64,000 nucleotides of DNA, from assembly GCA_040954595.2 (NCBI GenBank), contig CM082591.2, positions 4,139,957-4,203,956 on the forward strand, written 5' to 3'. The first letter of the stretch is position 1. Each line of letters opens with the position of its first letter. Below are positions 2,543-61,200 of the stretch, piece after piece. The stretch comes from Balanoglossus misakiensis. Lineage: Eukaryota; Animalia; Hemichordata. Both the position numbers and the translations under genes were made by a program. Below the pieces are notes generated by a model, which was not told the DNA's origin, ran no database searches, and saw only the letters and a program-made list of their open reading frames with translations.

Positions 2543-9224
<6,682 letters not shown>

Positions 9225-9418
9225 CTTCTTGCAAGGAAAAAGTAGACTTTCTGATCCTGCTCACCCCTCTCTCATCAGAGGAGTGGTCTGTTCCTAACGT
9301 AGGAGACTGTCGCTCGGGGAGGGTCCACTCGCTGATGGGGGGTGTATTGGTGGTGCTGTGGAGGGGTAGGGTAAAAAAGTCCACTTAGAGTGAACAAGCT
9401 GAAGTACAGTGCAGATGT

Positions 9419-18522: not shown

Positions 18523-19129
18523 TCTACAGAATTAAAGTGAATTCACCAATAATTAATTTATTAGTTTATTTACGAATACAAGCATCCACTGTCTTTGATT
18601 TGCTTAGCGAATACATGGGTGATAGAAAATGGTATACGCAATGTACATTACCAAGCTGATTGCAATGTACATTACACGCCTAAACATGTAAATTAAATTA
18701 AAATCAACTACCTCCCTCTTTAGAGCTAGCTTTGATTACATGGTACCTGTTGGTTCTAAAAGTTCTGGGCTGATGATAACTTTGCGTGTTTTTAGACAAT
18801 CTGGTGATCGTGATCGCGTGAGAAACCACAGATGATGCGAGTTGAGCATTATCATTAAATCAGTGTATATGCTATTGATGGGGTGATAAACACGGAAGTG
18901 TGCAACGCTTTGTTTCGTAAAGAAAAGCGATCTGTGATAGCTCCGCGGTTTGAGCACGGTCCCTCCACACATGCGTGTGGCACAGACGCGTTAAGAATCC
19001 CTTACCTGGCTAGACGAGAGCTGATCTTGGCTAACAGCTGCTTTGAATTCCACAAAATCTCCGCAAGATACCTGTCAATTCAGGTGAGAAGCAGGAGACG
19101 TGGCGAGTGGGGACCTGTAGCCTCCTTCA

Positions 19130-19450: not shown

Positions 19451-20668
19451 GAGGGGAAGTAATGGCTTCTGTTCACCTCGTTTGTTTACGAAATCGACCC
19501 GAAATTTACACTCCTGTGGTTTATTTTAAGGTGAGTTGAAGTAAGATCTACGTTCTTCTAATGATATAAAACCTTAGTCGTGAAAAAGTGGGTACGATCG
19601 CATCGTTTCTAGGACAGTGACAGACATTTACCTGGGGAATTAATCAGACGACCCAACTTCACAAGTTCCGTGCCATACAATGATGCATAGCCAGCCACAT
19701 TAGTAATTTTTAACTTACTAGTAAATGTGGCATGAATTGTAACGACGATCAGTGGTTTCGACTAACCTTCGCACTGATCAGAAAATGTAGTGTGAAAATA
19801 TTGGTCACAAGTTCACGATCTCCAACAGACATGGTTCAACACACAGTGTAAACAAACCCAAAACAAAACAGATGTATGATGTTATTGTTATGCAAATTGC
19901 AATTGACACCACTGTTTCTGCCCCTCCCACTTGCCTTAACCACCCAGATCCTAGACCCCGCCCATACAACCGAGATGATATTAAGTATTTATACAGTAGA
20001 ATACTTTTCCACCGGTAGATCCACTGCAAGATGACTAAATTTAATCAGTATAAATTAATTACATGCAGTATTTCCTATAGCAAAGTACAAGGCAAAGTCC
20101 ACCCTTTGAAATATATCATATCTCGGCACGTACCTGTACACACAGTACAATCACAACTCTTTTTTCGTGAATCATTAAATTGTACATAACCATATGGGGT
20201 TACCTCCATGGCATAACATTGTCCCGACTTTGCATAAACAGGAAGTTTAAAGTATAAAGGGTAAAAGCATTAAAACACAATGATGATATTATATTAATAA
20301 CATCTTACTCGGCATGTGTTAACTCGGAAACAGGGGTGAAAGGGTTAAATGATAACAGACATATCATCAGGACTGTAGATTTCAGGGGCGGTTTGAAAAC
20401 ATGAATCAATTCCCACTACTTTGCATATACATAAAGCACTGCTGATTCTGTTTGATAAAACGCTGCCTGAACAAGTTGTGAATTATTAATAAAAAGTATA
20501 CATTTTATCTCCACAGTTTCTTTGGAATTGACTCATACAAGATATACAGGGGAAATTCAACGTTTAGTCAGAGTCGATCCAAGTGAAAGATCCACTGCGT
20601 TGTATTGAGATTGGAAACACTTTCATGTATATTCCAGCCATAGTTAAGGACTGTGCGTGTATTGAGAA

Positions 20669-33177
<12,509 letters not shown>

Positions 33178-35077: not shown

Positions 35078-39157
<4,080 letters not shown>

Positions 39158-39627
39158 TGCTGAAAGCCAGTGATGGATGTGGTACCAAATTGTCTGTCGA
39201 AAGGCTCTTTTAGTTTTCTTTGTGAATTTGTTAAAGCTGACCAGGATATGTCAGTGCGTATTGGGTCTGTTCAAAGCAAATACACAAAACAAGATGTCCA
39301 ACTGGCATTTTGACAAAATTGTGTAAATTACATAGCAAAGAGTATCTATGACTTTCAATCGGGAAAATATAATAAATAATACAAGATCTATTTTACCAGA
39401 AAAAAATATTGTTTATATATTCAATGCAATATAACCTTATTCATGCCATTGTAATACCACAAAGACACTACTTACCTCGTGAGTATTCATCAGACAAAAT
39501 GGACTGAATGCTTTCCACATATTTAGAAATGAGTTGCAAATTTCTTTCAGCGAAACCCAACAACGAGATCTCTTCAATTTCTTACCAACAAAACAAAAAC
39601 ATCAGAATGATTTTAACAGGCGGGTTG

Positions 39628-40086
39628 ATACGTACGTACGTACGTACGTCTGTACGTACATACGTACGTACGTATACGTACATACATACATACATACATA
39701 CATACAAACATACATACATACATACATACATACATACATACATACATACATACATACATACATACATACATACATACATACATACATACATACATACATA
39801 CATACATACATACATACATACATACATACATACATACATACATACATACATACATACATACATACATACATACATACATACATACATACATACATACATA
39901 CATACATACATACATACATACATACATACATACATACATACATACATACATACATACATACATACATACATACATACATACATACATACATACATACATA
40001 CATACATACATACATACATACATACATACATACATACATACATACATACATACATACATACATACATACATACATACATACATACA
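39628..40086. repeat. Long (TACA)n microsatellite with (TACG)n head
   Basis: About 400 bp of nearly perfect TACA repeat. Confidence 0.98.
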
Positions 40087-41834
40087 TTTTCTGCTGTCAA
40101 TATGTAGGGCAACATTTTTGTCATTTTACACATTCTAGACGAACTGTTTGAAAGTCTTGATCAAATTCTTTAAAAAAATACGCTAACGGGCTTAAATTTG
40201 TATTTAAAAAAATGGCAACAATTTGGCTATTGCGTTGCAATAAGGACTCCACATTCACATTACTTCTGATATTGATGTCGTATCCTAGTAAGTTGGTTTG
40301 TCCAACCCGCAGATGATGAAAAAAATTCAAAAGCCTTTGTAAATACAATAAAAAAAACAATTGGGACAATTGTGTTAGACTCCTAATAAATAAACAAAAT
40401 ATCTCGAGGTTATCAGAACCATAACTTATTTTATTTTCTTTGCCAATCTTCAGAAATTTTCCCCGTGTAGTTTTTCCTTATATTCAAGGAGGTGACGCTT
40501 ACCTTTATTTTTGCTGTGTACAACTCTAGTAAGAACAGCAGACAGGCTTAGCAGACAACCAATACAGGCTATTGTAGACGCTCTGACGAACATACCTTCA
40601 AGCTATGGTTTAACGGTGAAAAATAGGCTTTAAGGGGTTATTACGTCGTCTAATTACTATATCAAACATTGATGTGAAATAATAGCAGTGCTATTGTAGG
40701 ATTAGATCTGGCGAATGTGGAAGACCCAGGCTTGTCTTTGAAGGGGACGTTATCAGCCTCAATGCATGCAAACACCTACACGTAAACATTTGGCTTGTAG
40801 TCTTGACGCCATGATTCCGGGGATGTCCCCCGAAACGGCGAATAGCCTCAAATTATTGCAACTGACGTAAACACAAAATTGAAATGTGCTTTGTACAAAC
40901 ACAGTCACTCCATGTGTGAAGTGACTGTTGTCAAAAGCACTGTACCACAATACAATGTGAAAGACATCCCAATGAAATGTATATGACCTTACCATACCAC
41001 GGTCTCTAGCGTGTCCCAACTATAAGAACTACGTACAGAATCCAAATACAAATAAGACATAGGGTCTACACAGCTGCGTTCAAGCAATTACACGGCAAAC
41101 TGCCAAACAAATCGGAAAAACACAAGCAGTATGCATGGTCGAGCACCGCCTTTCTGAACGGTGGTTCTAAATTCAACCCTCGTCGTCGTGTAAACAGCCA
41201 GATACTATAGATGCATTGTTTGTGTCGTCAAAGGAGCGCTCTACAGTACGGTCAAATGAAAAACCTACGTTCAACTTTGATCTGCAGCTCTTTCAACAGA
41301 CTGATTAAAATTCAGTAAGTGTCTGTGACAGAAGAACTACTGCAACAAACAATTCTAAATATAGTTTCAGCTTTCCTTGTTCCGACCCAAGTTGGGTCGC
41401 TGAAACTGTTGATAGGAGTTTGTATGAAACTGTCCGGACGGTTTAGCTCCGTTTCCACAGCTACACAATATTGTGACGATGTAATTCGTGAATTTCATAG
41501 CTTCTGGTACATTGCCAGGGGGTGGATAGTCTCGTTTCCAGACTCGTTGCTTCGCAAGTGAAAACGAAGTGAGGAGGTCTGGGGGCAAGATCAGGGGGTG
41601 GATAGCTAAGCTTACTCAAAAATAAAACGTGAATACGTCTTTTGTTGCAAGATTTTAATAATAACTTCAAAAGTTGGTGTTGTTTTCTGAAAGTTACTAC
41701 TTTACTTGAAATTGCCGCGGTAACATGGATAAACGACCATTTTGTTTTGCGTACTGCGTTTCTTATAATGCAATTGTCAGTATGAGTAAGTAAGAAATAA
41801 ACTACATGTACAGTAGATGAAAATGTATCTCCAC

Positions 41835-44800
41835 TTAAACATCGCCCGTGTGATCGACATCTTTTTCTTCTTTGAAAGTCTCATGAAGCGTGTCATTAAC
41901 GTCTTTCCTTCGCAAAACTTTTGTGGCTTCCATTAGTTGGACCTGTGCGTGGTGTAACAATGCTTGATAGTCTTTGGAACCCGCACTGCTCGGGGGAGAC
42001 AGCGAGTTGGCGGGGGACTTTGGCCCGCTCCCCGCGACAGTCTTACTCGGCGACCCTGCCGCTGGATCTACAGGTGGTCTTTTAGGGGTTGGTGAGTTGC
42101 TGTTGAGTACGTCTGTTAGGACCTCCGCCGGCGTCTTGCCCCCTGAGTCGTTCTTAGCATTATTGAGTGCTGCGCCAGGGTTCATTGCAGGCTGTTTTCC
42201 CCCGAACTGTTGCAGGACGTCGGCTAATATTTGTGCGGGTGTCTTTCTCCCTGACTTAGTCCTTGTGTTTTCTGTTGCGCTGTCATCTTTACCCTCCCCT
42301 TTGCCTTCTGTCCCGCTCGGCGCGTTTGTCTGGCTGCCCGGTGCTCCTGACGAAATCAACGCCAGCAACTCGGCCACTCCATCCGTATCCTGACTTTCAA
42401 GCTTCGCAGAAGACACTTTCACGGCCTCCTTCTTGTCTTTCTCTTTCTTCTTCCCTCTTTTCTTGCCTTCGCCTTTGCTCTGCTTCTCGGTATTCCCGAG
42501 CTGCGCCAACACCGACATCAACTCGTCATTGGCCGCGCCGACGTCCACGCCGTTTGTCCTGTTCTTCTTCTTGGACCGCAGACTCGCGCCCAGTTTCGTG
42601 AGGACCGCCATGGCGTCGTCGCCCTCTTCAATTTGGAGTCCGTCCACCTCTTCTTTCTCCTGTCCAGTTGTATCACCATCGCCCTGTTTGTCAGACTCCT
42701 CTGCATCCTCAGGTTTCTCGCTGCTGTCTTTCAGAGACTTGTTCTCCTGCTCTGGTTTTTCCTCCTCCCCAGAAATCATTTTCATCAACTCGTCCACGGC
42801 AATCCCCTCATCTTCTTTCTTTTTGCTTTCCTTCTTTTTCTCTCCCTTCTTCTTCTTTTTCAGCGGTGCTTCACTCTCGCCTTCCGATCGCGAGGTGTTG
42901 GTGGGCCCGGTAGCTTTTGTGCGCGGGCTCCATCTGTAGGACTTTTTCGACCGTTCGCTTCGATTTTTACTCGGGTTTGTGCCCCTGTCGGAAAACGCTT
43001 GGCTGTTTCGTGATTTTGAGGGCTTTGGGCGGTCGTCTGTAGACGTGGCGTATGTTCTCGTTTCGCTGCGTGGTTTTGTCCGTGGGTAAATCACCCTCTC
43101 CTGCTCAGGGGGGAGTAGGCGCCCTTCTATGGTGACGGGCACTTCTGCCGAGGCGTGGCCGTGGAGTGTTTGCGGGCCCGGTGGTTCTCGGCTCGTGACG
43201 GTGCGCATGTCTTCCCTGTAGTGTCCGGTCATTGTCGTCACCTGCGCTGGCCGATATGCGCCCTGGAGGATGGTCAGCCTTTCCACCTTATTCATGGTGG
43301 CGGTGATGTCGTCTGGGTCGGTTTGCACGGCGGCGTCGTAAGGCGTCTGGACCTCCTTGGAGATCATGATTTTCTTCGGCTCGGCCACTGGCGGCGGTTG
43401 CACCACTGCGTGCTGAGGGGTCGCCGGTGCCGCAGCCACGGCCACGACTTGTGTGTTTGGTTCCATCACGACATGGCTTGGCCCAGCTACTGGTTCCGAC
43501 TGTGACGCCTCTTCCACAACAGGCTGTTGTGTTAGGTCTGCCATCTGTCCCTTCTCTCCGCTTTCTACCATTGGGACATTCTCCACTCCGTCGCTTTTTG
43601 TCTCCCCTTCCCCTTCAACAACGACCGCTTGTTGCTGTTCCTCATCCTTCTGCTGTCCCTCGTTGTCCTTCTCTTCTTCCCCGACGACTGGCACCGCCAT
43701 TTTCTCTTCTGGCAGCTGCGAAACGTCTTCCAAGGGTTTCTCGCCTTCGTTTTCTTTTATTTCCCCGCTCTGACCATCTTCAGCTCCTTCCCCCTTTTCT
43801 TCCTTTCCTTGCTCGCCATTTTCGCCCTCTTCCTCCTCTTTCTTTTTGCCACCCCCCATGAATCGCCCGAGCGCCCTGGCAAATCCCCAGCGAGATTTCG
43901 GCTTCTCTTCTTGCTTCGGCTCCGGTTCGGCATTCTTCGCTTCGGTCTCTTCCTTCGTCTTGGCATCATTCTCCTTTGCGTCCGCGTCCGCGTCTGCCAG
44001 CCCGTCTCTCTGGACGCCGCCACTGCTGGTTCTCGGCATGTCCTCGTCTCTCTTCTCAGGCCCCTCTCCTTCCTGGCCCTTCTCATCTTGTTTGGCCTCC
44101 TCCTCCTTATTGTCACTTCCTTCTTCCCTCTTCTCCCCACCTTCCTCTCCCTTTTCCGCACTTTTCGCCCTCTTTTCCTCACCCTCTTCTTTCCCCTCTT
44201 CTGATTTCACATCCTCAGCCTTCCCATCGCCCCTTTCTTCGTTAACATCTTCCGTCTTATCCTCGCTCTCCCCTTTCTGCTCTTCAGTTTCCTTTTCTCC
44301 CTCCTCTGTCTTTTCTTCCTCCTTGCCATCTTCTGTCTTTTCGCCGCCACTTTCAACGACTTCCTCTTTCTTTTCACTGATACCATCTTCCTCAACTTTC
44401 TCCTGATTCTGATTTTCTCCTTCTTTCACCTCTTCATTCCCTTCTTCCTTTTCAGCTGTTGTGTCTTCTCCCTCTTTCTCCTCTACCTTTTCTTGATTCT
44501 CCCCCTCTGCTTTTTTCTCCTCCTCCTCCCCTTCCTTTGTATCGTCCTCGGGTTCTTTCTTCTCTTCCTCGGGCTTTTCCTTCTTCCCGAACAGCCTCTT
44601 GAAGAAACCCCTTACTCCACCTTCCTTCTTCTCCTCTCGCTTCGGTTCTTGTTGTTGTTCACCTTCTTGTTTGGATTGACTTTTCTTTGATTCGGTAGAT
44701 TTGGCAGTCGGTGGACGTGGTCTCTCCGACTTTGCAGTGGCCGGTCGAAGCGAGCGCGAAGTCTTCGGTCTTTCGTTGTCTGTTTCGTCCTCGGTCGCAG

Positions 44801-45221
44801 TCTCCCCCTTCCTTTTGTCGTCCAGTTCGGATTCATATTCGGTTTCCGTTGCCTCGTCCGCTGTGGTCTCTTCTTCGATTTTCTCCAAAGCCGGCGCCTG
44901 GTCAACCTTGTTCCGCCGCGGCCGCGGCTTCCGAGGTGCCCGGGGTTTGTCCTCTGGATTCCCGTCGCCGGGTTTTCTCTCGCCTCGCGGGCGGCGTCTG
45001 CGGGGGCGGTTCGGGTCCCGCTTTCGCCGACGTCGGGCGTTCGGGTCTTTCCTCCGTCTCCGCTCTCGCTCCTTCTCTAGGTCCTCGTCGACTTCGTCCT
45101 CGCTGCTGCCAGGGTTCGGCTTGGCGTTGTACGAGAACTTCTGAAACCGTGGCTGGGGCGGCTCGGCCGGTTCGGTGCCAGCGCCATCAGCCGGTGTGAC
45201 TGTCGCATTTTTGTTCCCCAT
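41835..45221 (-). CDS. Uncharacterised 1128-aa Glu/Lys-rich disordered protein, single coding exon
   Basis: Uninterrupted 3.4-kb ORF, GC-richer than its flanks. Splice acceptor at ~45266 upstream of aagATGG; candidate AATAAA (minus) at ~40504-40509. No globular domain recognised. Confidence 0.85.
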   Translation of the reverse strand: MGNKNATVTPADGAGTEPAEPPQPRFQKFSYNAKPNPGSSEDEVDEDLEKERERRRRKDPNARRRRKRDPNRPRRRRPRGERKPGDGNPEDKPRAPRKPRPRRNKVDQAPALEKIEEETTADEATETEYESELDDKRKGETATEDETDNERPKTSRSLRPATAKSERPRPPTAKSTESKKSQSKQEGEQQQEPKREEKKEGGVRGFFKRLFGKKEKPEEEKKEPEDDTKEGEEEEKKAEGENQEKVEEKEGEDTTAEKEEGNEEVKEGENQNQEKVEEDGISEKKEEVVESGGEKTEDGKEEEKTEEGEKETEEQKGESEDKTEDVNEERGDGKAEDVKSEEGKEEGEEKRAKSAEKGEEGGEKREEGSDNKEEEAKQDEKGQEGEGPEKRDEDMPRTSSGGVQRDGLADADADAKENDAKTKEETEAKNAEPEPKQEEKPKSRWGFARALGRFMGGGKKKEEEEGENGEQGKEEKGEGAEDGQSGEIKENEGEKPLEDVSQLPEEKMAVPVVGEEEKDNEGQQKDEEQQQAVVVEGEGETKSDGVENVPMVESGEKGQMADLTQQPVVEEASQSEPVAGPSHVVMEPNTQVVAVAAAPATPQHAVVQPPPVAEPKKIMISKEVQTPYDAAVQTDPDDITATMNKVERLTILQGAYRPAQVTTMTGHYREDMRTVTSREPPGPQTLHGHASAEVPVTIEGRLLPPEQERVIYPRTKPRSETRTYATSTDDRPKPSKSRNSQAFSDRGTNPSKNRSERSKKSYRWSPRTKATGPTNTSRSEGESEAPLKKKKKGEKKKESKKKEDEGIAVDELMKMISGEEEKPEQENKSLKDSSEKPEDAEESDKQGDGDTTGQEKEEVDGLQIEEGDDAMAVLTKLGASLRSKKKNRTNGVDVGAANDELMSVLAQLGNTEKQSKGEGKKRGKKKEKDKKEAVKVSSAKLESQDTDGVAELLALISSGAPGSQTNAPSGTEGKGEGKDDSATENTRTKSGRKTPAQILADVLQQFGGKQPAMNPGAALNNAKNDSGGKTPAEVLTDVLNSNSPTPKRPPVDPAAGSPSKTVAGSGPKSPANSLSPPSSAGSKDYQALLHHAQVQLMEATKVLRRKDVNDTLHETFKEEKDVDHTGDV

Positions 45222-46773
45222 CTTCGGGGTGTGGGATCACAGGGGAAAGTGTTCTGCTGCATTACCTGCAGACATAAAATATTACATTCGATCCTTTTAA
45301 TTGTTGCATCCCCACGTAATATTGTAGCATTCACTATCTTGACGAGCTTGAGGTACCCAAAAGACACCAAATACTGTTCATTGTTGTAAAAATGGGAGAG
45401 GTTTTATCGTTTGGGCGGACGACAGTGGAGATTTGCTGGTATATACGATGACCCAACGAAAATGAGAGTAAGCTTGAAGTATCATCATACAGCTGCAGTC
45501 AGAAACAATTCTTTTTCTAGGTCTTACTAACAACAACGTTGCGATAGACCTACATCGCGATAATTCCTAAAGAAGACTCCCTATTTGTTTGTACTACCAC
45601 TGTTGATGTATTGATTTTTTCTCTTCACGTCCTGTCAACCTATTCAAAAATTCCTCGGGTGAGTTTCCACTGTTAAAACCCTATAATGCCGTTGTAGTGT
45701 TTTAGTGAACAAGAACACCCCTGACTGGTGAGAATGAAGCGTATCTACAAATAAAATTATTTCTCACTCGGAGCCACGGAAACCTACTTGTATGGAAATC
45801 AAAACTTTGCCACACAACAAAAATTCTAATACAAGCAATGACAGTCCGGTTTTGGTAACGCCGAATGCCATCCTTCATCCGATGATTAAAGACTAAACAC
45901 CGCACTGAAGTCTGAGGGTCACAAAAGTGTAATGGAAGATGGTGCACGTAAAGAATTGAAGAGACGGTGTGCTCTATAAATTCTAATGATGTTTTCCAGT
46001 ATATAGAAACACAGAAGCCTCAACGCCGGTAATGTTGGCGGCAAAATGGTTGCCAACTTTGTAGCTCAGTCGACAAAACGTCACTTACCTACATCAGGAC
46101 TAGTAGGCCTACTTTGTTGGTTTAACGCTTCATGGTTCGAAGTTGTGTTTATAAATACAGAAGCAATTTATATTTTCCATGCTAGAAGACAGAGGCAGCC
46201 CATTGCTGGTAGAGAACAACGTAACTATAACGCCAGAAAAATAAAAACAACGATCTAAGCCGATTATGTCACAAAGAGAACTTAGGCTAATCAATATTTG
46301 AAATAAAACAAAAACCACACAGTCAGCGCTCGTATGAATTATTCATTTTATCTGATCCAGTACTGTAAAAAGTCTTCCTAGATTGATAGCTTTCGTTTTC
46401 ACTGAAACAACTATCCCTTATCATGTCCCTGAGAAAACCGTGTATGTAGAAAGTCGCACAGTCCTACTGCAGAGGGAGTGTAGAACTGTAAGACTTTATT
46501 CACTGTAATGCGGATGGCTGAACAACTTGTGGAGGAAAGCGATAACGAACAATCTTGACCAAAAACAGTAACGGCATTCTCGGCTTATACGTTCGGTCAC
46601 TGATTAATTTGCATTTACTTTGAAAACGAGAGAATAGAAAGACAAGTTAAAATTTTAGTGTAAAATTTGGATTTTTACGTATGTTTATGTGACTAAACTC
46701 GACACACTCGATTTAACCATTCTTCTGTGAATGTAGGCGAACACACATTTTACAAATACCGCACTACTTCATC

Positions 46774-48679
46774 ATGGCGGATATCGACTTCGAGCCACTG
46801 AATTTGCTTCTGAAGGTACGGTATTGCTAGTTACAGGGTTTTCTTTTAGGTCGGTGGTTATTGTAGGGAATGCAGGAGTGATTTGGCATTGTAGTTTCAC
46901 TCCGGTACTTTTGCCCACAGTCGTGGCTGTGCTTTTACCCATGGTACGTCCGAAGCCCGAGCTGCAATGTTGTCAGTGTGTGTGGACGCGCCCCGCCCAC
47001 CCGTGCCCCACCCCTGTCAGTGTCACTTGCTCTACGTATGTGTGCTTGCCAGTTGTCTTGTCAGCTGTCACAAGAGGGAGGGGAGAGGTCCACACACCAA
47101 TCAAGGAAGTGGTAGGGCTACGGATCCACAGCCACTGTCCGCCCAACCACGTAGCTGCAGTGCAGTACCAGGTTTTGCCTTTGGTAACGATATGAGATAG
47201 TACTCATGGGTTACTGTGTATGTATTCCCCACCTCAGGCTAATTCCAAGGAGTTCGTTCTGCGCCTTTGTGAAGATGCATACCTGTACAGAGATGTGGTG
47301 GAGTATCCCAAGAAAGTGACGGAAGTCATAGCAGTGACGTTATCAGTTCAACAAAATGCTGCTAAACAGGTGAGTGGTTTGTACACTGGCCAAAACGCCT
47401 GCCTGAACACAGGATGCCACTGGCTCATATTTCAATACAACCCCATAGAAACATACACATGAGCAAAATCTATGTGCCTTGACTGGCTGTTAGTATTCTC
47501 TTGCCTGATACAAAACATGACTACATCACTGCATACCTCATTCATTCTCTGGTATTTGCAGATGCTCCGAAGTTTGAGTTTGTTAATACAATGTGCAATA
47601 TTCGAAGGCTGCTCAGATGCCCCCTCAGTGCAAGCGTTGTTCCCAGGTAAGTTTATCCAGCCATGGGGTTAAATTGCAATTGAAATTCAAGCATGATATC
47701 AGCGCGGTGTCAAAATTCATCAATCATAATTTCATCTTGTTTCCATTCCAGATGATTTTCACAAAAACCTGAAGGACCTCATCACTAAAATTATCGTAGA
47801 AAACTTGTAAGTAATTGATTTTTGTCAAGCGGTAACATACTTTTTTTCATTTGTGTGGCTGGATCCATTACAGGTCAATTAACATCTATCTGTAGGGTCA
47901 GTGAATTGGTTAAATGTACTGAGAAATATTTTATTTATTTGACTGATTTTTTTCAGGCCGTCATGGAGAAGCAGGTCAGTGAACAACCAGAGTAAGTAGA
48001 CAATATGTCACTTTCATGACCCCTATATGACATTTTGTACATCTGTTGGTATGGGGTTGTCACAATTCAACATTTTGGGACAAGAAGCCTGTACAAAAAA
48101 GTTGCTTGAAAAAGAGTCACCTTTTCATTTGTCAACAGTAAGAATTGTCATTACTCATATACATGAAATATAAACAAAATTGAAAGAACTGAACTGAGGT
48201 GTTCAAAGGATGAATTACAATGAAACCTCTCTGGTGCATTTCAGTTTCCTTGCCAAGATTGGTGGATTTTGATTGGAGGGTAGATCTGAAGACTTCCACA
48301 GACACTATCACTAGGATGTCAATGCCAACCTGCGTGCTGCAACTCAAGGTAGGCTGTGAACTGATTTTTCAACAGACGAATCCCAGAGTTCGAATTTACA
48401 AACCCATATGTGAAAATCGACTGTAGATATGTGTATTGCTGTATATCATCACCACTACCACCACCACCACCACCGCGAACATCATCAACCATGTGTGTTA
48501 AATCTCAAAATCCATACTTCTTTTCCTGTCAACAGGTACAAGACACACCAAAACAAGTGGACTGCGTACCAGAACTCTCGTCTCTCAGTGTAGAACTAAG
48601 CAAAGAAACATTGGACACCATGTTAGATGGACTAGGGAAAATCAGAGACCAGTTAAACTCAGTTGCCAAGAGGACGTAG
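46774..48679 (+). CDS. COMMD9: COMM domain-containing protein 9, 7 coding exons
   Basis: Exons: 46774-46815, 47238-47369, 47562-47646, 47752-47806, 47957-47991, 48245-48348, 48536-48679. Motifs FHKNLKDLITKII, SLPRLVDFDWRVDLKTS and VELSKETLDTMLDGLGKIRDQL match COMMD9. Confidence 0.95.
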
Positions 48680-49345: not shown

Positions 49346-49620
49346 GTCATATTACATGTATGAACAAACAGAAGCATCATTTGCGACACAAGCAGCTTGG
49401 TTGACGGTTGGTGATCGTGAGAAGAACGAACCAGGCATTTTATTTCTTTTTTATCCTCATCTGTATTACTGTTTTGCGAGAAGAAATATTTAGAGTCAAA
49501 AAGTGATGTATAGAAATTAATATTGACGATGGTGTGAAAACTTTCGTTCACAGGACAGTTGTACCGGTAAAGGTGTTTTCAAGTTGAACTGTAGTGCGTC
49601 GACGACAATTTATACCCAGA

Positions 49621-50386
49621 ATGTCCGAGAAAATTGTCAACGAAATCGCGAAGAACGAGGCAAAGCTCGAGGACACAGAGATGAAGAAAACTATGGCTCC
49701 AGATACCAAGAATCAGGACTCGCAGGTACGGCTAGGCGCCCTGTCGTTGTGGGATTTTGTTCACCTAGGACAGACTAGATTAAAATCGAAGCGCCCTTGT
49801 CTAGTTCATTTAGATTATGTGTTAAATGATTCGTTTAAAATATTTTCAGGAGAAGAAAGAGGAAGTGGCCACAGAAAAGTGTGAAAAGTTGCAAGAAGAG
49901 AAAAAGAAGGAAGAACATGAAAACACTGGTGAGTAAATGGCATGAAATCCCTGTATTAGGACTATATAATTCAATCATACACTGAAAATTTTCAGGGAAC
50001 CCCAGGCTCGAGCATTTAGAGAGAATGTCCCTAAGCAAGTGTGTATATTTATGACCCAAAACAATATGTTTGCGAAGGATGGGGAAGATTGGTTAAAGAT
50101 TGGTTATATGGCAGTTTTGATATACCAAGGGGAATGACTTAGGGGACCTCGGTAACATTTACCTAGGTATCACCCTAAACAAAACCCACTGCTACATTTA
50201 TGACCACTTCTGCTTACCGCAGAGGACACAACTACTCCCAAAGTCAACCCAGGAGAGGTTTGCAACAAAAGACCAAAAGAACAGGAGCCCGCTGAGGCAG
50301 ATGAAGCCAGCCCAGTCAAGAAACCCAAAATCGCAGACATACCGGCCGAACACACCTCTGCCAAATCTGTATCATGTGAGGAGTAG
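49621..50386 (+). CDS. Small charged disordered protein (115 aa) with bipartite NLS; pro/parathymosin-like
   Basis: Exons 49621-49725, 49850-49928 and 50223-50386 join in phase: MSEKIVNEIAKNEAKLEDTEMKK...EKKEEVATEK...KRPKEQEPAEADEASPVKKPKI...CEE*. AATAAA at 50636. The gene model is good; the family call is tentative. Confidence 0.7.
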
Positions 50387-52559
50387 AGCAAGGAATTTTT
50401 TTTCAAATGTTGTTTGATCAATAGTTTTTTAATATATTAGCTGTAAACCACAATTACCATGTGAACATTTTTAAGGAAAAAATTGCTGAATTTCAGTGAT
50501 ATTACTGAATATTTTAATCTTTGTACTCGTAATGAGTAAATTGTTGTGTTAATTTTAACTGACTGCTGTCAATGCCAGACATGTCTTATGGTGATACCAA
50601 ATTTTGTACACTGTTGTTCAATGTTATTTCTTCTGAATAAAGGTTCAAAAGTTGATGGGACTTCAAAAAGAGTGTGTGCAGTTGAATTTTAGCTTGCCCA
50701 TCTGCATTGGTGAACAACTCTGTATATGGTTTTACACACTACAAGTATGACAGACACCCAAGAACAGAATAGCAAAGAACCAGTAAAAGTACTTCACAGG
50801 TATGTATGTGCATTGTCATAAACTGTGGCTTTTTCCAATGTGCTCTCTTAGTCCATAATTATGATGCGCCGCTGACTCAAACTCACTGGTGACTCAAGGG
50901 AGGGGGTGAGTGGACCATCTGGTGGGGTCCCCCCCCCCACCTCTCCAAATTCAAGTGTCTTCACCCTAAAGTTGCATTATGAGTGACACAAGACACCGTA
51001 CCAGAAATAACAGATAAGGCTGCCTTTAGCACTTTTTATTCTAAATTTCATGCAAATATATTCATGTTGGCCTCGTTAAAAATATTGCACGCACTACAAA
51101 CTACTAGGAAAATCATGTATCTATAAAATGAGTTGTTAAAAAGTAAGTACATTGGCTTTTATTCAACACTTTGCTGGAAATACCACGAAAGCATCTGAAG
51201 CTTTAAAATTTCTGGAACATTCACAAGTTGTTAAAATCCAATCCCGAAATGAGGTGTCATTTTGACTTCAACTCAAAATGCACCAATCTCAGTAATGTCA
51301 AGAGGGGTCCTGTTATAGATGGCCAACTCTACCCTATCAAGACAGTTCTCCTGTTTTTAAACACGCAACGATCAAGAAAGGGCTGATTGATTCACGTGTC
51401 CAGTAGTCAAAAACTCAAACCTTTCATAGACTTTCTATAAAAGTCTGCAGTCTGCATAACAAAATCTTTTATAAAACTGATTAGTTGCCTCTTGGTGTAT
51501 TTGTGTTGTAATGTATACGCTTCAAATAACTTTAATTACAGCTACTTGTAATTATTGCATTGTGCATGCTCCCACTATTGCAGCAAATAAGGTTAGTTAC
51601 TTTTTAAATGGCACTGAGTAGATCATTGAGTTGATTCACGATCTGAAATGATGAAATCACTATATGGGGCTTGCAACTAACATGTATACCTAAAAAACTA
51701 CATTTACCACTTGTGTATGGAATGTATACTCATACTGCAGTATTTCCAAGCCATGTTGCCTTATATATAATGCAATTAAAATTAATGTGATAAATACAGA
51801 TTATAAGATTTTCAATATACCCTTCTCCCTTTCGGATAACCTGGCCATCAACTGTGCCATTCATTGTGGTCTGGACCACAGGTGGCTTTCATTTTTGGCT
51901 TGTATGGGAAAGCATACAATGTGTTTCTTTTTGACTGTTTTGATTGAAAACAATCTCTGGTTAGAATATTTCTTCTGCTCTGCTCGAACTGTCTTCATTG
52001 TACGTCACATGCAGCAGGTTATGCTGACATCCACTTGCGCAGATATTGAACCTTAACATAAACAACCACAGCCAGCCAGTCCACCTTCGGGAGTTCCTAT
52101 CTATACCACTAAAATCAGAAGGATCGGCCTAAAATAACAGCATGACTCACTCAGAATACAGACAAGATACACCCCTCCGTTGTAATCCTTCCCCCCCCCC
52201 TCTCCACACATGGATCAACCCATCACATCATAGGCAATGAGACTGAACCAAAGTACAGTGCAGAGAAGGGTTAAAACAGCTGTATTGACAATACAACTGA
52301 TTGAAACCCTGGAAGAGTGTAAATTCAACTATATCACCAATAGTCTAAACCCCCTCCATTCCATATCTGCATTGCAGAAATAACCCACTATAGCTTACTA
52401 CATATCTGATTATATCTATCAGTAAAACAATATACATTGTACAACTCTGTAACAATAAAGTTATTTGCATGGTTATGCAGGTTGTCATGTGTCAATTGAA
52501 ATGCATCATCTACTGCTATATATGGGTGCAGCCATGGGTAGGTTGCCATGACGATGTTC

Positions 52560-55500
52560 TTAATCGTCTGCTTCACCTGTGGAGACAAAATAAAATTATG
52601 GCACTGAGTTAAGCCAATGTCATTTTCATGCAGCAATTGATTGCTAGCCAAGTAATACAAGTCAAGCTTTGTATGTAACAAATATTATACTGTTTGCTGT
52701 TTAACATGATGAGCATTGTGTTGTTTGTCCTGTGTCACATGAGAACTAATTACCATAAGAATGGTTTCCATTGTGATTTTCTTCTGGGTTGTGATTGGTG
52801 GTGCTAAACCCAAGCTCTTTTGCCCGGCTATCTGTCCGGCTGTGTTCCCCCTGGCCGCGCTCTCGGATAATCTTCCGCATGTGCGCTTTGCAGTAGTACT
52901 TGTTGTCCATGACGGAAAAATTAGTCAGGCTGTGGGGGGGGGGGGGGGGGGAGAGAAAAAAGACACAGCTTAAGAAGATGATGAAACTGTTTTCATAGCA
53001 TGGTTAAAAATAGAGTAGGTCAGGTTAACAGAACCACATTTTTTTATTGGCCTTAAGCCTTTCAAGCCTGGCTTTCTGGGAACGTACCCAAATATCTCCT
53101 ATATATAGGATATCTGGCCAGAAAGGGTTTATCTAATAAGCCTAACTGGAAGAAAACGTTACACACAGTCTACTCAAGAAGTCTGGCAGATTTCAGCAAC
53201 TCTCTATTTTTCTCTGATCCTTGTCACTGTTCAAAATAGAAGAATCTTCAGGCTTCATCACAAGACGTACGCATTCACAATGGACTCACTTGACAGTGGC
53301 TTTGCACACTTCACAGCGGAAGCAAGCCTTGTGGAAGATCTTCCCATCCGCCTCCAATTTCTCCATGGCGTAGACTGTCTTACTACAGCTGTTGCATTTC
53401 TCAGCCGCTGGTGGCTTCCAGGCCTTACCACTCGCGCCCTGTGTGTTACGAAATGCCAATATGCAAATTTAAATGACGGGTATCTTGGATGCGATTGGCT
53501 CACAACCTGCAGACTATGATTTCTGCCCATGCTGCTACTTTTATCAGAACTGAAAACACTGATTTTATTTTTGGTGTTGAAATTAAAAATGCATGCTGAT
53601 TATACTGTCACTGATAAAAATATGAGGATTTCTTCACTATTACTGAGTCCACAGAAAGTTGTCAGTAAAAACATTAACTGAGTGTTCACAGTGTTTTTTA
53701 CAAAGAGAAACTATGCAAATTACAAGTAAGCAAATGACCAATCACATGTACACAGCATGCAAATGAGGATGGCGACATCATGGAGGAAGCCATTCTCTTG
53801 GAAGAAACCATTCTCACCTGCGTAACTTCGAAAAGTCACTCGATAGGACAGCGAGAAAGTGCATAGAGTGGAAATCTGAGAGGTTTTAGTGACTTTTCTC
53901 AGAATAAAAGCTGAAATCACAAAGAGAAGGAAGAAGAGACAAGATTGCAACTTGATGAGATTTCGCATGAGACGATGTTGTGCTATTACTAAAGAAAAAT
54001 GGCAGCAATGCGTGGATTTGCATAAATTATGCAAAATAGCAGACTTTAACGTACACAGTATGAAACCAAGAGTAGACAAAAATATGGAGAATGTGTTTAT
54101 TGCAAAGGTGATGAATGATAGTACATATGACATTAAAAAGCTGATACAGCTTTGACAACAGAGAAGTTTGAATACAGTGATGAAGCAGTTTCCACTTTAA
54201 TATAGAATGGTTTCGTTAACCATAGACCACATGACTAGATGCAGAGTCTAGCACACAAGAAATACAAGAATAGATTGTGAAGATGTTTATCTCATTTTCA
54301 ATAAGTGCACAATGAGACAATGTATATGCTTGAATGGAAATTATATTTGCTGGTTCTGTCACTCACCCTGCGAGGTGTACCTGTGTCTGTGCCCTGCTGG
54401 TCGACCTGTTGTTGGAACATATTCAGACGACCGGCGACGCCCCCAGAGGCAGCTATGCCTTCGTTGCGCTCTTTGAACCGCGAGTAACGTTTCTGATCCT
54501 AGACAGAACAGAAGAATATAGCGTCAAATGACACAACGCTCCCATTTGATCAGAATCGATATTCCCAAATAATCATTAAAACCTGCAGACCAATGACACT
54601 GTATGAGAGCAACATTTTCTACTTGTGGTTAAATCTGTGGATCGGTCAAAAATCCATCAAAAATATCAACAAATTATTCTCACCATTTTGTCTCCATCTT
54701 TTGTTTCCATCTGTTCCATGAAACGACTCACTCTATAAAGTGGGAAAATAAACAGAGATTTATATAGTTTATAGGGTTTGATCCTTCTTCCAGGATACAG
54801 AAATTCATTCACAATTCTATATTTAAAGTACCCCACAAAATTCTGTAACATTTGCTGATCAAGTTGACGCCTCAATTAAATGCAAAGTCATGATTTTTAA
54901 AGGCTGTTACTTACTTGTGAGTTTCCACACCCAAACCAATCTTCTTTGGAACACTGCATGTGGAGGATGGGAGGGAGGGGGATGGGCAGTAATGAAGGAA
55001 GAGATAGATGATATATTACTATGTTGTAACTTTAAAATGATATCAATTAATCCACACACTGTGAAGAAGAAACTGTGTTACCTGTATTTCATGGCTTCTC
55101 TCTGTCTAGTTCTGTCTTTGTAGTTAACACATAGAGCTCATACAATTGCTACAAAATTTCAGTGTGACCTAACACTAATTTAGCTTGTGAACTCCCATTT
55201 TCACCACTCACTTGAACCCTATTTAATTTAGTGAGAATTGAGATGAAGGAGTCAACATTTGATTTTTTTATTCTTTACCTGGATTTGTTGAGCTGTCCCA
55301 GTCTTTGGGTATACTCATTCACCTGTGACAATCACAAAAAATAAAAAGATGAATTAGGATGTGAGATAACTGTTTAATTAACATGGCATGTTTCAAATTA
55401 TACAATATCTACAATTTGCAGAAAAATCGTAAAATAATCATGCTTTTCAGAGACATTCCTGGAGCTCTCTGTCAGACCTGTTCCACTGAAAACAGTGCAG

Positions 55501-58281
55501 ACATCTAACGTGTAAACTCACATCATATTCTTGAATCTTCTTCTGCTGTTCCAGGTCAAAAATCTCCGACAGAAGCTCTCTCAGTTGAATGTTGTACTCC
55601 TCGGCTATGTCCTGCAGCTCTTCCACAGAAGTTGAGTAACCGATTTGTAATTCCGGCACCTTTTCCTGCAGGATCCGCTCTTTCTCCTTCTCCTGCTCCT
55701 TGGCACTCTTTTCCGCATCCTGCTTGGCTTTGGCAATGTTGGCCTGCGTTCACAAAATGCACGGACATCATCACCCAGGGATAGAAAATGGTGAGTGATC
55801 TGCTTCAATCATTTGTAAATCAATCTTGGCTTATTCATTTTTTGGTCATAAAGACTCTAGTACAGTAGTTCATGGGAATGAAAAACATGTTCCAAATGTC
55901 CATTTGAAGTTGCATAGAAATGACGTAGAAATTATGTGATGTAGAGAAATGGGGTGTACTGTGCTGTGATGTGAAGTAATGTGGTATAATATGATATGGT
56001 GTGGTGTGATGTAAAGTGATGTGATGTGAGGTGAGGGGTTGTGTTGTGATGTACACCATCTTCTCCACAATTATCATTTGGTACAATCCCGATTCACCGT
56101 TCAAAACATTTCCACCCATACCTTCAAATCTAGTTTCCGAACCACAGACTGCTGCATTCTTTCGTTCAACAGGTTCCGGCGCTTCTCTTCCGCCTCTGCT
56201 TTGCGCTGTTCCATTTCTTCTCTGCGTTTGCGTGCCTCTTCCTGGAATACAGACATAAAAAAATACTTCATCTCAAACCAGGTTTTTTTTCTCATGTACA
56301 GGCATATCATAAGTAATGAAAATGATCTCCGAAAATGTCTCTCAGTCTTGATCATTTCTGGGAGTACTGGGTAATTGCTATGTATCAATCATCATCTTTC
56401 TAAGGATGTGGAAAATACCCAGACACAACGACACTGGCTGGACCGACCAACACACTGCTGGCTGTATATGAAGAGATTGTCACTAATATGTCGCAATATA
56501 CTGTCCACATAACGTTTTCCAATCCAAAATAACTGAGAGAATGAAACCATGGCCACTCACTTCTTCTTTCAGTTTACGCTCAGCTTCTTCTTCCCGTCTC
56601 TTCCGGTCTCTCTCTTCCTGTTCTTTCTTGCGCTGTTCCTGTTAGAACAATCATACGAATACTTAGTCCGACTATCATTTCAGCTGGTACCGGCTGGTTA
56701 CACCGTCACCACAGGGACATATATTCCTGTGTGTGTACCAGCCTGATCACAGCTGCTTCGTTCAAGACAGTTACTTGGGACAGGAATTGGTTAGAATACC
56801 ATACTGATGTACAGTTATATACTTGAAGTCCTGATAATAAGGCCTGATTTTGAATACCAGTAGTGAGAGCACAGCTATAGGATAAACCAAGCACCTATCA
56901 ACTCGATTCAATAAACAGAACATGATATCTTTTCGAAGGGAATGTGAACAACGAAAGACTGACTTTTCCCAAATTCCCACACTCACTTTTCGTCTGCGCA
57001 ATTCTTCCAGTTCCTTTTCCTGCTCCTCTCGTTCCAGACGTCGCTGCTCCATCTGCAGTTCCAATCTCTCCTGTTCTTCCCGCTGACGTTTCTCCCGGAT
57101 TTCCTGCAGGTGTCAGATGAAAGGAGAATATCATTCTCTGCCACGTTGTATGGTACAATATATTCCAACAGTTTGTCAAGGACAATGGACAGCCTCTTTT
57201 TATGAGTTATGAGATGATTACATTATTGATACCCAAAAATGGCACACACAAAAACTGCACACTGTCAAAGCTCTGAGTTACCGATAACTTACACTCAATG
57301 TGTTAATGGCCTCCATTCCACTCTCATCCTCTGATTTCTCAAATGTTGGCATCCTGTTTAAAAAAATAAATAAACACTTTTTGAGACAAATTACTGGAAT
57401 GTGAGCTTTGGTAACCATCACTAAAGATGGTACTACCACGAGTTTCACCACCATGGTTCAGTCCAAAGCCATTGTTTTCTATAGTAAGGTTGGACCGCTA
57501 AAGAGGGACTGGGGCTGAAAGGGTTAATTTTTGAAATTATGACATCATCTGGTGGTAGTACTCTGTAGGGCTTTTTTTCGTGTCTGGACTCACTTTCGTA
57601 ATTTTGGTTTCTCCTCCACGTGAACTTCGTGGACTTCATGGACTTTTTTTGTGCTGTGGTAAGTCACAGGCTCCGGTTCTGGTTCTGGTTCTGGCTCCAT
57701 CTCGGGTTCTTCTTCCTGTTCCTCGTATTCCTCTTGAGGTTCCGGCTCTTCGTACTCGGCTTCGGGTTCAGGTTCGGGTGACGGTTCCCATTCCGGCTCT
57801 GGCTCAGGTTCTGGTTCTTGTTCCGGTTCCGCTTCCGCTTCTCTGGAATATCTGCTCTTATACGAGGAGGAATAACTGTAGCTGTTGGTCTCCTCTTCCT
57901 GTTCGGGCTCTGCACGGCTCTGGCTGCTGTACCGCGACGTGTAGCTGTGCGTTTCGACTTCTTGCGCCGGGGCGTCGTTGCTCTCTTCCAGTTTGCGGCG
58001 GCGTTCCTCGCGACGGGCGCGCCGTTCTGCGGCGGCCTCCTCTTCCCCTAGCAACGCAGCCTCGGCCGCCAATCTGGAGTTCAGGAAAATAATTTTAATT
58101 AAATTCAAGAAAGACACTCTCAGTGTCTAAAAGAGTAACTTGAGATGCGATACACCAGTAGGAAAGGATATAAAAATTTCGAGTGGGAAGCAACCAAAAG
58201 GGTGATAACAATTTTGTACCTTTCGGCTTCCCTCTTCTTTCTGCGTTCTTCGCGGCGACGGGCTCTTTCTTCAGCATCCAT
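52560..58281 (-). CDS. Troponin T-like protein with caldesmon-like N-terminus and C-terminal LIM domain (~591 aa, 15 exons)
   Basis: Phase-consistent GT-AG exons: 58220-58281, 57594-58073, 57293-57353, 56987-57103, 56561-56638, 56122-56241, 55522-55743, 55279-55322, 55082-55111, 54915-54953, 54684-54732, 54367-54498, 53290-53438, 52754-52929, 52560-52576 (1776 nt in total). TnT-like segments EIREKRQREEQ...ELEELRRRKEQRK and EKEKERILQEKVPELQI...ELQDIAEE...EIFDLEQQKKIQEYDVNEYTQRL. LIM domain CNSC..HKACFRCEVC..YCKAH. Confidence 0.85.
55925..56052. repeat. Degenerate (GTGAT)n pentanucleotide repeat
   Basis: Directly visible in an intron. Confidence 0.75.
57443..57527 (-). mobile_element. Short ~85-bp TTAA/CCC-ended MITE-like element
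   Basis: Its reverse complement aligns by eye with 62422-62511; it ends TGAAAGGGTTAA. Confidence 0.6.
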
Positions 58282-61200
58282 GGTTTAAAAAAAGTTTCTG
58301 TAACAAACATACTTATAAATTAATTGGAAACTCACAAAATGCAGCTGAATGGTAAAATATTCGTCTTATTAAGATATTATTGATACAGTATGTTCAGACA
58401 TGAGTCTTGTTTACATCAGTAAAAGAAATACATGTATATTTCATTTATGCCATTTCTTGTCAATGACGCCCTCTAGAAGACAGTTTCCAGTACCTTTTGT
58501 TTACAACAGGACAAGATTAAAGAGCAGGGGGAACGATTTGACCTCCGGCAAGTTGATAGCAGCTGCAGGATTTGCAACCTGACCCCTTAGACTCATCTTT
58601 CAGTCGATGTACATTACAGCTTTCTTGAAACATTGCCAAGTCGTCGCCCGAATCATTTTTTTGAAACCCAAGCCCCATTATAGAGACATAAACATAACGC
58701 AGACTGCATAGGGGGAGCAAAACCCACAGCGACCTTTAGTGACATCGCCATGGAAACAGTGACAAGGGGTATCACTCTGTTTCCGATTACTGTAAATTGT
58801 CTGATAGACAAAACGTAAAAAAATCCCCTGATGTGTCGTTGATGATAGTCACACGACTATCAACTGATAACAGATATCAATTTTGTGGAACTAATCCGTT
58901 GAAATGCTTCCCTGTCACAAACAGAGACTTTTTATTGTTTCAATCACACTTCTTCTTAAGCCCTGAAAAAAACACCAGATTTTGGTTGAAATCACGAACC
59001 TATATCTTGCGTGTACATAGTTTGCCATGTGCGTTACTGAATAAACAGTATATAATTCTTCTCCCTCATATTATAGGTCTGTGAATTTTCCATTTGAGGG
59101 ATGATGTGTGTCTGGGATTGTCCAGTTAGGATGTGGTTCCCGGCACGATGCGGATAACGGCTGGAAGCCGGGAAAAACACCCAAACTGCATTTTTCCATG
59201 TTTTATACTATTCCACAGTCTTACCACAGTCTATGAATTATTACGGAACATTCAACTTATGTGCGTGCCTGGATATGGGTCTACACGAAGGGTATGGTTT
59301 CCTCTTGCAGTAAATGCCAATACACCCACACACTGATGCGATACACAAAGTTTTATTTACTGGGCCCCAGACACTCAGGGATAAACTTCGCCCACTCACA
59401 CAAACATCTGACGTGGGGCGTGTGACTCAGAAATGGCGTTGGCATCAGACTTGTTTATGTTAGGCCAGTAAGGGAGCAGATTTAAATGTGGTTTAATATA
59501 ATCAGTGTGTGTGTGTGTGTCCAGCATGAATCCTTTTGCAGTTATAAATATTAAATATTTTTTTCTTTCAGATCTGTCAATATTGAGAATGCATCAACGA
59601 ATCCAGGTGGGTATATGTATGGTGTATATACCCACATGTTTTCCAAATCAGCACTAAAATGCTGGGAAAAAATATTAGCAAAGAAATACTGGTAATAATC
59701 TGATGTACAGAATTCACTGAGAGTATTCAACCATACAGGTAAATGCCCTGGCACCTTTCCTGGGCCAATTAGCATAAAGAGTTCACGTTCAGTGAGCTGG
59801 GGAGTCCACTCAGAGGATGACATCACCATTTTTGGCCAGGCGCAGGAATTCCCTGCATTTTGATACAACTTGGAGAAATGTCAGGAATCTCTCAACGGTG
59901 ATCGCAGAATAGTTAATTCTGATGGGTCTCTCGCTTTCGTGGCAGTATTCCATTTCCCCATACTTGCCCTCAGACCATCTGTGTGAAGCTCTCTCGCTCG
60001 AAATAAGTAATCTGACAGATTGGGGAAGTCTCGCACGTATTGGAAAATTGCCATGCATTTACTAATAGCTTTTCCAAACACCAAACGCACTTGTAAAATT
60101 ATTCGTTTGACGACATGAAATTCGTGTCCACATCAAAAATCGGAATCAGGTAAAGTGGTTCAGTCCAACCCTGCATTAAGAGGACCAGGACACAAGCAAA
60201 TGAGGGGAAACATTTCAAGCTTGTTGAACCTGTTTCATGTCCTCTCCATTTTCTTATCAACAATTCCATCAAACAAATTCTTTTGTAAAGGTGAACGGCA
60301 CTGTGTCGATCAATACAAACAATTCAGAGTTGTTTGTGCGATATTCTTACACGGACAAAAAGAGCACAAATACAATAAAACACCACTCTATCTTCTTGAA
60401 AGGGGCATCTCTGACAGCGTGCAACTCGACAGGTACAAATCTCCTTATGGAATCAATTGTCTGGCAAAGCATTGTACAATAGACAATACTGAGAAGTAGG
60501 TGTGTCTTGAGAGCTGTTTTTATAGTCCCTCTTGTTTTTCGTCATTTTTAGCCAAAAGACTGACTGGCCAAAAATTATTCTTTACAGTGAAGATATGCTT
60601 TAACATGAATAAATATTCTATATTAGAAACTGTTTTGCAAACGTCAAATTGTGCTACCACTTCACAGTCGAAAAAAATCTCTATGACAAGAAATCTGCTA
60701 GGATTACTCTAAAGGTCTCAGGAACACAAATTACACACTTCAAAAGGATTTTCCGTGTTTGTATTGTACCACGGCGATTAATGCCGGGGCAAAATTTATA
60801 GGTACAAATTCCGACATTTTTAGTGCGGCCAGGTACAGTAAATTCAATGACCTACAGCTTTCAAATATTTGTATGCAAGCCAATGGTTCACACATTTCAG
60901 GTCAGAGGTCAAACCACAATAGTGTACTTAACAAATAGAAATGTAAACACGAATTACCATTTATTTTATTGCTGCAGAAAAAGAGGGTATTTACACTGTT
61001 TAGTGTGTTTATGGTCAAGGTGAGTATTTAACAATAATTACTATGATATGCCATATTTCAGAAATTATAAATACATGTACATTATACACGCAGCAAATCG
61101 ACACTCCCACTTCGAAACATATATTTAGTTTCCTACAGTAAGTGTTTGCGCTCACAAATATGAACACGTTGCACAAAATACAGCAGATTCCAGCGACATT

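Follow-up and report, generated by a model that had tools for sequence, protein, structure and literature searches.

A predicted troponin T with a C-terminal LIM domain in Balanoglossus misakiensis, shared by gene models of another acorn worm, sea stars and a brittle star

We analysed a 64,000-nucleotide stretch of genomic DNA from the hemichordate Balanoglossus misakiensis (contig CM082591.2 of assembly GCA_040954595.2; called the window here) and found on its minus strand a predicted gene that joins a troponin T core to a LIM domain. Judging from the sequence, we are highly confident that this is a genuine fused gene. The fusion emerges as a real and conserved variant of troponin T that is apparently undescribed. 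Its product is predicted to be a thin-filament protein, for which the case is good, and the reading that we prefer, with a probability of roughly 0.6, is that of a troponin T tethered to the thin filament whose LIM would serve as a docking module.

The predicted gene comprises 14 coding exons between positions 58281 and 52560 of the window (Table 1), and its 1746 nucleotides (nt) translate into 581 amino acids (aa) with no internal stop. All 13 introns, of 146–928 nt, are of the GT-AG type, and exon phases agree throughout. A preliminary description of the locus had proposed that troponin-like exons splice without a stop into exon 54367-54498, in phase 0, and from there into a phase-0 exon at 53290-53438; the 14-exon frame bears this out, although three short exons (44, 39 and 49 nt) rather than the four then counted precede 54498-54367. 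At the fusion junction, the end of exon 11 (54498-54367) and the start of exon 12 (53438-53290) are both in phase 0. As described earlier, the LIM exon has no initiator of its own, with no in-frame ATG ahead of the first cysteine of the LIM in the exon 12 reading frame, and an in-frame TAA lies in intron 11, 11 codons upstream of the acceptor at 53438. We scored the junction with a splice-site matrix derived from the remaining 12 introns of the gene (leave-one-out). The fusion donor at 54367 scored 9.8 and ranked first among 76 GT sites in the scanned stretch, while the acceptor at 53438 scored 10.7 and ranked second among 68 AG sites, the top-ranked AG being inside exon 11. Both scores are on a par with those of the remaining splice sites of the gene.

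Nine stretches were scanned against Pfam, with cut-offs of 26.2 bits for Troponin (PF00992), a family that takes in both troponin T and troponin I, and 22.9 bits for LIM (PF00412). This check had been suggested beforehand, and both halves of the protein passed it, exon 7 alone scoring 32.4 bits for Troponin and exon 12 alone 32.5 bits for LIM. Exon 11 alone gave no match in Pfam or PDB. All eight zinc ligands of the LIM are present (C-x2-C-x17-H-x2-C-x2-C-x2-C-x17-C-x2-H), and their spacing, over 52 residues, is the same as that of herring LIMA1. Exon 12 opens the LIM, as first reported, but does not complete it; the domain is interrupted by a phase-2 intron and encoded across exons 12 and 13. 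At the other end of the protein, the acidic variable region (aa 51-181) contains 43 Asp/Glu, 20 Pro and 11 Lys/Arg residues, and exon 2 (phase 2-2) could be skipped without a change of frame. A Glu/Pro exon has been described for halibut fast troponin T too (PMC1919359). A non-coding exon probably lies ahead of exon 1, because an AG acceptor stands immediately upstream of its coding part.

The same architecture was found in gene models of other ambulacrarians. When longer proteins were searched by indexed words with exon 7, none of 113 candidates matched, but a full HMMER scan with this exon did find relatives, namely ten proteins, of which six were short fragments, three were LIM-less (sea urchin P0001, and P0004 and P0006 of Saccoglossus) and one was a fusion. 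The fusion, XP_006821398.1 (P0002) of Saccoglossus kowalevskii, is a single chain scoring 33.8 bits for Troponin and 33.5 bits for LIM. Over 464 aligned residues it has 55% identity with the window model, to which it is sister in the core tree (95/95). By eye, the window model is nearer to Ptychodera PF10040-t1 than to Saccoglossus, yet is not identical to it. The query P0002, followed by its match from Patiria, brought in five echinoderm species with RefSeq fusion proteins, namely Patiria miniata, Asterias amurensis, A. rubens, Acanthaster planci and Amphiura filiformis. The LIM cut-off was passed by 13 of the 13 isoforms listed for these five species, or 14 of 14 in six species with Saccoglossus included, and no LIM-only or LIM-less isoform was among those listed in the fusion clusters of the six.

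Five aligned orthologue representatives, Patiria included, are collinear through the core, the exon 11 motif, the linker and the LIM. The motif (aa 432-456) is identical to that of Saccoglossus at 23 of 25 positions, and the linker from the motif to the first cysteine measures 28–30 residues in 7/7 sequences. The LIM of the window model shares 46 of 62 residues with Saccoglossus and 26–29 of 62 with the echinoderms; identity in the T2 domain is 30–41/89 among the sequences compared. LIM conservation roughly equals that of the troponin core. Fragments from echinoderm-like genomic contigs enter an apparent intron right behind the last codon of exon 7 in six of six cases, which suggests that this intron is shared. 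Since every listed isoform carries the LIM behind a linker of constrained length, and since separately annotated genomes agree on phase and linker, a chance neighbour is unlikely and an old ambulacrarian fusion very likely. The proteome survey proposed at the outset was thus positive for hemichordate and echinoderm gene models, but no amphioxus case turned up. Nor did a crinoid or protostome fusion, in searches that are too insensitive outside Ambulacraria to show absence, since the ten proteins of the exon 7 scan include no named chordate or protostome troponin T. A metagenome scan with an alignment as query returned 80 loci, all LIM-only, none of which matched a T2 profile.

Some observations speak against our preferred reading. 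Intron 11 contains poly(A) signals and spare donors, the RefSeq models all come from one shared pipeline, and the Troponin cut-off was passed by 7 of the 13 asterozoan isoforms, with three below it and three, from Patiria, giving no hit at E 0.001. The locus could instead hold two adjacent units, a troponin T that terminates within intron 11, by read-through or polyadenylation, and a small LIM transcript of its own with an internal promoter. The fused form would then be either a minor isoform or a prediction error common to the models. Read-through from exon 11 would indeed stop after 22 codons, ahead of the AATAAA at 54101; the unused donor at 53818, at 9.7, scores almost as high as the fusion donor (9.8), the weaker donor at 53746 could supply an in-frame ATG exon of 11–22 codons, and LIM-less paralogues exist. 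However, donor 53818 supplies no in-frame ATG, and an arrangement in two units sits poorly with the LIM in all 14 listed isoforms, with six species for which no LIM-only or LIM-less form is listed, and with the conserved phase and linker length. We regard it as very unlikely. As a separate matter, the AATAAA beyond the read-through stop, together with donor 53818, could yield LIM-less isoforms of the fused gene.

We next consider whether the core is of the troponin T or the troponin I type. Its membership of the troponin T lineage is predicted with strong confidence. A profile of five orthologues matched cardiac troponin T with 41.5 bits across the T1 and T2 regions, compared with 29.9 bits for the best troponin I, and aligned with invertebrate troponin T (P0040) over 205 columns, C-terminal tail included (probability 98.3). 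An ESM Atlas feature search with the Amphiura core led to troponin T clusters (0.92), while one with P0002 gave no usable feature match. The signature Q-x-Y-D/H, of the troponin T type, was present in 12/12 scanned sequences. The T1 region is predicted to form a long helix (H100-198 of the Acanthaster model) and aligns to cardiac troponin T, but is of low complexity. Exons 3–5 (61, 117 and 78 nt) presumably have the same sizes as the corresponding vertebrate TNNT exons. In the published tree, the orthologues fall in the troponin T orthogroup, separate from troponin I (Inoue & Satoh, 2018; PMC5888912).

Several results pull the other way. Exon 7 alone placed troponin I first in PDB (22.6 versus 15.8 bits for troponin T), the Saccoglossus core alone hardly separated the two (28.1 versus 26.7 bits), and NCBI names two orthologue isoforms ‘troponin I-like’. 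The low-complexity T1 helix also matched caldesmon, at 43% over 95 columns, and the tropomyosin-binding sites of ambulacrarian troponin T have been judged poorly conserved and its function ambiguous (PMC5888912). The core might be a troponin I with a long N-terminal extension, such as sea urchin troponin I has (PMC5341096), and the gene a troponin I-LIM fusion. The orthologue profile, the alignment with P0040, the ESM Atlas result and the signature all favour troponin T over this alternative, and separate true troponin I genes are listed for Ptychodera, Acanthaster and the sea urchin (PMC5888912). On the profile scores, the tail alignment and the published tree we rejected a troponin I identity, which we consider highly improbable.

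The LIM is closest to those of EPLIN and LIMD2. With the orthologue profile, the best single-domain LIM matches were EPLIN (79.7 bits), LIMD2 (63.6) and MICAL1 (42.9), and the same three ranked first in a fold search with an AlphaFold model of the Acanthaster orthologue (mean predicted local distance difference test score 68, predicted template modelling score 0.23, from a 5-row alignment). The segment before the first LIM cysteine also aligns with EPLIN, and exon 12 matches EPLIN 2d8y from its first residue. The preliminary description had placed the LIM with EPLIN, LIMD2, XIRP and MICAL; its closeness to EPLIN and LIMD2 was upheld by sequence and fold, but the 22-residue Eplin motif that follows the LIM in herring LIMA1 was absent from the window protein and six orthologues (seven checked). 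Two candidate affiliations were set aside. Membership of the EPLIN class was rejected for want of the defining Eplin motif, despite the single EPLIN-type LIM. A CRP/MLP source was rejected as single CRP LIMs scored about 40 bits against 79.7 for EPLIN and group apart in the LIM tree. Six fusion LIMs form one group among 55 LIM sequences, a weak grouping (Shimodaira–Hasegawa-like approximate likelihood ratio test 93, not starred, 70 columns).

The LIM is located behind the natural C-terminus of troponin T. The LIM-less Saccoglossus paralogue P0004 stops 17 residues past the Phe of the motif, and exon 11 ends 16 residues past it. Because these ends nearly coincide and the pre-LIM segment resembles EPLIN, the simplest history is one in which the LIM is an add-on. 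A LIM cassette from an EPLIN-type gene would have been captured once, via a phase-0 intron, behind the old troponin T C-terminus; the capture would date to the ambulacrarian stem, before the hemichordate/echinoderm split, and the LIM would later have been lost in the line of sea urchins and sea cucumbers, which has two troponin modules instead. The grouping of the six LIMs agrees with a single gain in the stem and loss in these two groups. Weighing against it, the deep branches of the core tree are unresolved (3/11 starred), and for this reason a single gain with later loss is parsimony and not proof.

All four sea urchin and sea cucumber isoforms tested (two each) lack the LIM and have two troponin modules. 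In Strongylocentrotus purpuratus XP_030845415.1 (P0013) and A. japonicus XP_071830420.1 (P0046), these are tandem troponin T modules in one chain. This tandem form is possibly another undescribed architecture of troponin T; in Inoue and Satoh, SPU002797 and SPU020276 figure as two distinct genes, one for each sea urchin module (PMC5888912).

What might a LIM do at the end of a troponin T? By analogy with other troponin Ts, the T1 helix would bind tropomyosin, and troponin I would associate with the T2 arm; such binding would position one LIM at each tropomyosin repeat. The LIM would then recruit an anchoring, cross-linking or signalling partner and not bind actin by itself. We lean, with odds a little better than even, towards this docking of a partner protein as the function of the LIM. 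The earlier suggestion that the LIM is an actin-binding or strain-sensing module appears doubtful, as isolated EPLIN and XIRP2 LIMs do neither in published tests. For EPLIN, the isolated LIM shows no binding to monomeric actin, and the actin sites of the protein lie on either side of it (PMC2172667); when LIMs of single-LIM proteins, EPLIN included, are isolated, force-induced accumulation on fibres is abolished (PMC11610427); and the single LIM of XIRP2 is cytoplasmic and is not recruited to strain sites (PMC10259482). An exception is testin, whose LIM1 alone recognises strained actin (PMC8684727).

That exception, and the recognition of strained actin by tandem LIMs (PMC8684727), lend something to the view that the fusion LIM senses strain or binds actin directly after all. 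Tethering by troponin T at every tropomyosin repeat would supply the avidity that is missing in free single LIMs, and the protein would report or brace strained thin filaments; a linker held at 28–30 residues suggests that position matters. The failure of the isolated LIMs of the nearest relatives and the presence of a single LIM per chain make this unlikely.

Alternatively, the protein may act outside the troponin complex, in non-muscle cells or smooth-type muscle, as an elongated actin/tropomyosin binder or cross-linker resembling caldesmon or EPLIN, possibly calmodulin-switched. Most muscle of ambulacrarians is smooth, and their genomes yielded no troponin C (PMC5888912). To this may be added the match of the T1 helix to caldesmon, the several paralogues, differing in their tails, of the fusion protein's own family, and the exon 11 motif, whose best match in caldesmon P0043 was equalled by 6 of 1000 shuffles. 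However, that test was post hoc, the motif also matches herring LIMA1 (22/1000) and another LIM protein (24/1000), and it is more simply explained as the troponin T tail. The T2 domain is kept, at the identities given above, and caldesmon gave no alignment over it; the Pfam Caldesmon profile stayed below its cut-off, at best 36.7 of 50 bits (31.9 among fusion proteins). We find such a role improbable, and retain docking by a thin-filament troponin T as the preferred reading. The likeness of the exon 11 motif to caldesmon and LIMA1 may in itself reflect a shared short actin-binding motif, or hint that caldesmon originated from a troponin T-like gene.

The regulation of echinoderm and hemichordate muscle in the absence of troponin C has been posed as an open question (PMC5341096; PMC5888912), although a troponin C has been predicted computationally in Saccoglossus, so that its absence is not fully settled (PMC5341096). 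A LIM-bearing troponin T kept from acorn worms to brittle stars offers a concrete handle on this question, and shows that troponin T is able to acquire new domains. One might go further and propose, as a speculation that we ourselves find rather doubtful, that ambulacrarians without troponin C evolved a second kind of troponin, in which a LIM at every tropomyosin repeat lets mechanical or partner input, in place of the calcium subunit, regulate or brace the thin filament. Acorn worms, sea stars and brittle stars would have retained it, and in sea urchins and sea cucumbers the double-module troponin T would have taken its place.

No second troponin gene was found in the six frames of the window. 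Neighbouring genes are given in Table 1. We take NUCB2, PIK3C2A, COMMD9 and TNNT3 to lie all on human 11p, which would make this an old linkage. Human TNNT3 has been mapped to 11p15.5 (PMC2447309). In Saccoglossus, the fusion gene (P0002) and the LIM-less troponin T P0006 (43 cluster members) share one contig of 428,008 bases, and troponin I and troponin T gene ids are near-consecutive in Ptychodera and Acanthaster (PMC5888912); together these suggest a troponin gene cluster. CArG, MEF2, E-box and TATA patterns were looked for near the gene, and enrichment was not shown (7 CArG and 17 MEF2 in the whole window).

Table 1. Exons of the predicted fusion gene, the fusion intron and other features of the window.
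Feature	Position	Strand	Content	Remark
Exon 1, coding part	58220..58281	-	ATG and charged N-terminal helix, aa 1-21	N-terminus resembles that of Asterias, Patiria and Saccoglossus relatives
Exon 2	57594..58073	-	480 nt, phase 2-2; acidic Glu/Pro-rich variable region, aa 21-181	Weakly conserved among orthologues
Exon 3	57293..57353	-	61 nt, phase 2-0	Matches Saccoglossus P0002
Exon 4	56987..57103	-	117 nt; T1 helix begins, putative tropomyosin-binding site 1	
Exon 5	56561..56638	-	78 nt; T1 helix	
Exon 6	56122..56241	-	120 nt; end of T1 helix and linker	
Exon 7	55522..55743	-	222 nt; troponin domain T2, arm predicted to bind troponin I; ends in Q-x-Y-D	Pfam PF00992, 32.4 bits
Exon 8	55279..55322	-	44 nt; end of T2 helix	
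Exon 9	54915..54953	-	39 nt; tail	tblastn match of Saccoglossus P0002
Exon 10	54684..54732	-	49 nt; tail	
Exon 11	54367..54498	-	132 nt; motif homologous to invertebrate troponin T C-terminal tail; ends in phase 0	Aligned to P0040 tail
Intron 11 (fusion intron)	53439..54366	-	928 nt; AATAAA at 54101 and 53569; strong unused donor 53818, weaker donor 53746	
Exon 12	53290..53438	-	149 nt, phase 0-2; EPLIN-like pre-LIM segment and first part of LIM	Pfam PF00412, 32.5 bits
Exon 13	52754..52929	-	176 nt, phase 2-1; end of LIM, following helix, unconserved tail without Eplin motif	
Exon 14, coding part	52560..52576	-	Stop TAA	
NDR/STK38-like kinase	about 6400-9300	+		Tentative name
Nucleobindin-like EF-hand gene	14900-18531	-	Long Gln-rich end	Tentative name
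Class II PI3K	20666-33000	+	PX domain	Tentative name
TIR-domain gene	35081-40477	-		Tentative name
Uninterrupted frame	41838-45236	-	1133 codons, Glu/Lys/Gly-rich, more complex central stretch	No Pfam hit at E 1
COMMD9	47200-48676	+		Tentative name
Open stretches	59554-60132 (-), 49500-50400 (+)		55-109 codons, possibly exons of neighbouring genes	No Pfam hit above cut-off

The architecture, which the preliminary description did not recognise as a known one, is undescribed in the literature that we searched: no description of a troponin T-LIM fusion was found there, the coverage excluding subscription journals and bioRxiv supplements. It is nevertheless already latent, unnamed, in RefSeq and UniRef models, and the gene lineage itself is published. 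One entry is a ‘LIM zinc-binding domain-containing protein’ in UniRef and ‘troponin T, cardiac muscle-like’ in NCBI. Orthologues also carry labels such as ‘trichohyalin-like’, ‘vicilin-like’ and ‘uncharacterized’, and these may be why the architecture went unremarked. The lineage corresponds to the ambulacrarian troponin T orthogroup (Ptychodera PF10040-t1, Saccoglossus Sakowv30001834, Acanthaster oki41-28/gbr182-39 and sea urchin SPU002797), whose printed rows match, by eye, the window model, P0002, P0070 and P0001 (PMC5888912). Inoue and Satoh class it as troponin T of unconfirmed function and print its tropomyosin-site regions only. The mentions of LIM in that paper (one in the main text and 18 in the supplement) refer to Muscle-LIM and FHL genes, and the fusion is not noted.

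The only pairing of troponin and LIM that we found in print is that of Amphimedon EPLIN, reported with a ‘troponin-like interaction domain’ (Koch et al., 2012; PMC3305314). This sponge protein is a true EPLIN with the Eplin motif, and its weak Pfam Troponin hit (E 0.0074, at position 6) is probably a false hit to a coiled coil. Troponins have been described as bilaterian novelties, and caldesmon as a vertebrate gene (PMC5167519).

Among known systems, canonical troponin T (vertebrate TNNT1-3 and protostome troponin T) shares with the fusion protein the acidic variable N-terminus, T1, T2 with Q-x-Y-D, and an invertebrate-type tail. The fusion protein differs in its C-terminal LIM and weakly conserved tropomyosin sites, and in that no troponin C has been reported in the lineage. 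The EPLIN class (LIMA1, LIMD2 and XIRP2; PMC3305314) has the best-matching LIM by sequence and fold, the same zinc-ligand spacing ending in C-x2-H, and a similar pre-LIM segment, but the Eplin motif is absent in 7/7 fusion proteins and the remaining chain is troponin T. Caldesmon resembles the fusion protein in its T1-like charged helix and, over a short C-terminal motif, in sequence; unlike the fusion it has no LIM, and only the charged helix aligns, with no alignment over T2. Finally, the strain-sensing LIM proteins (zyxin, paxillin, FHL and Enigma) have tandem LIMs, whereas each fusion protein has one.

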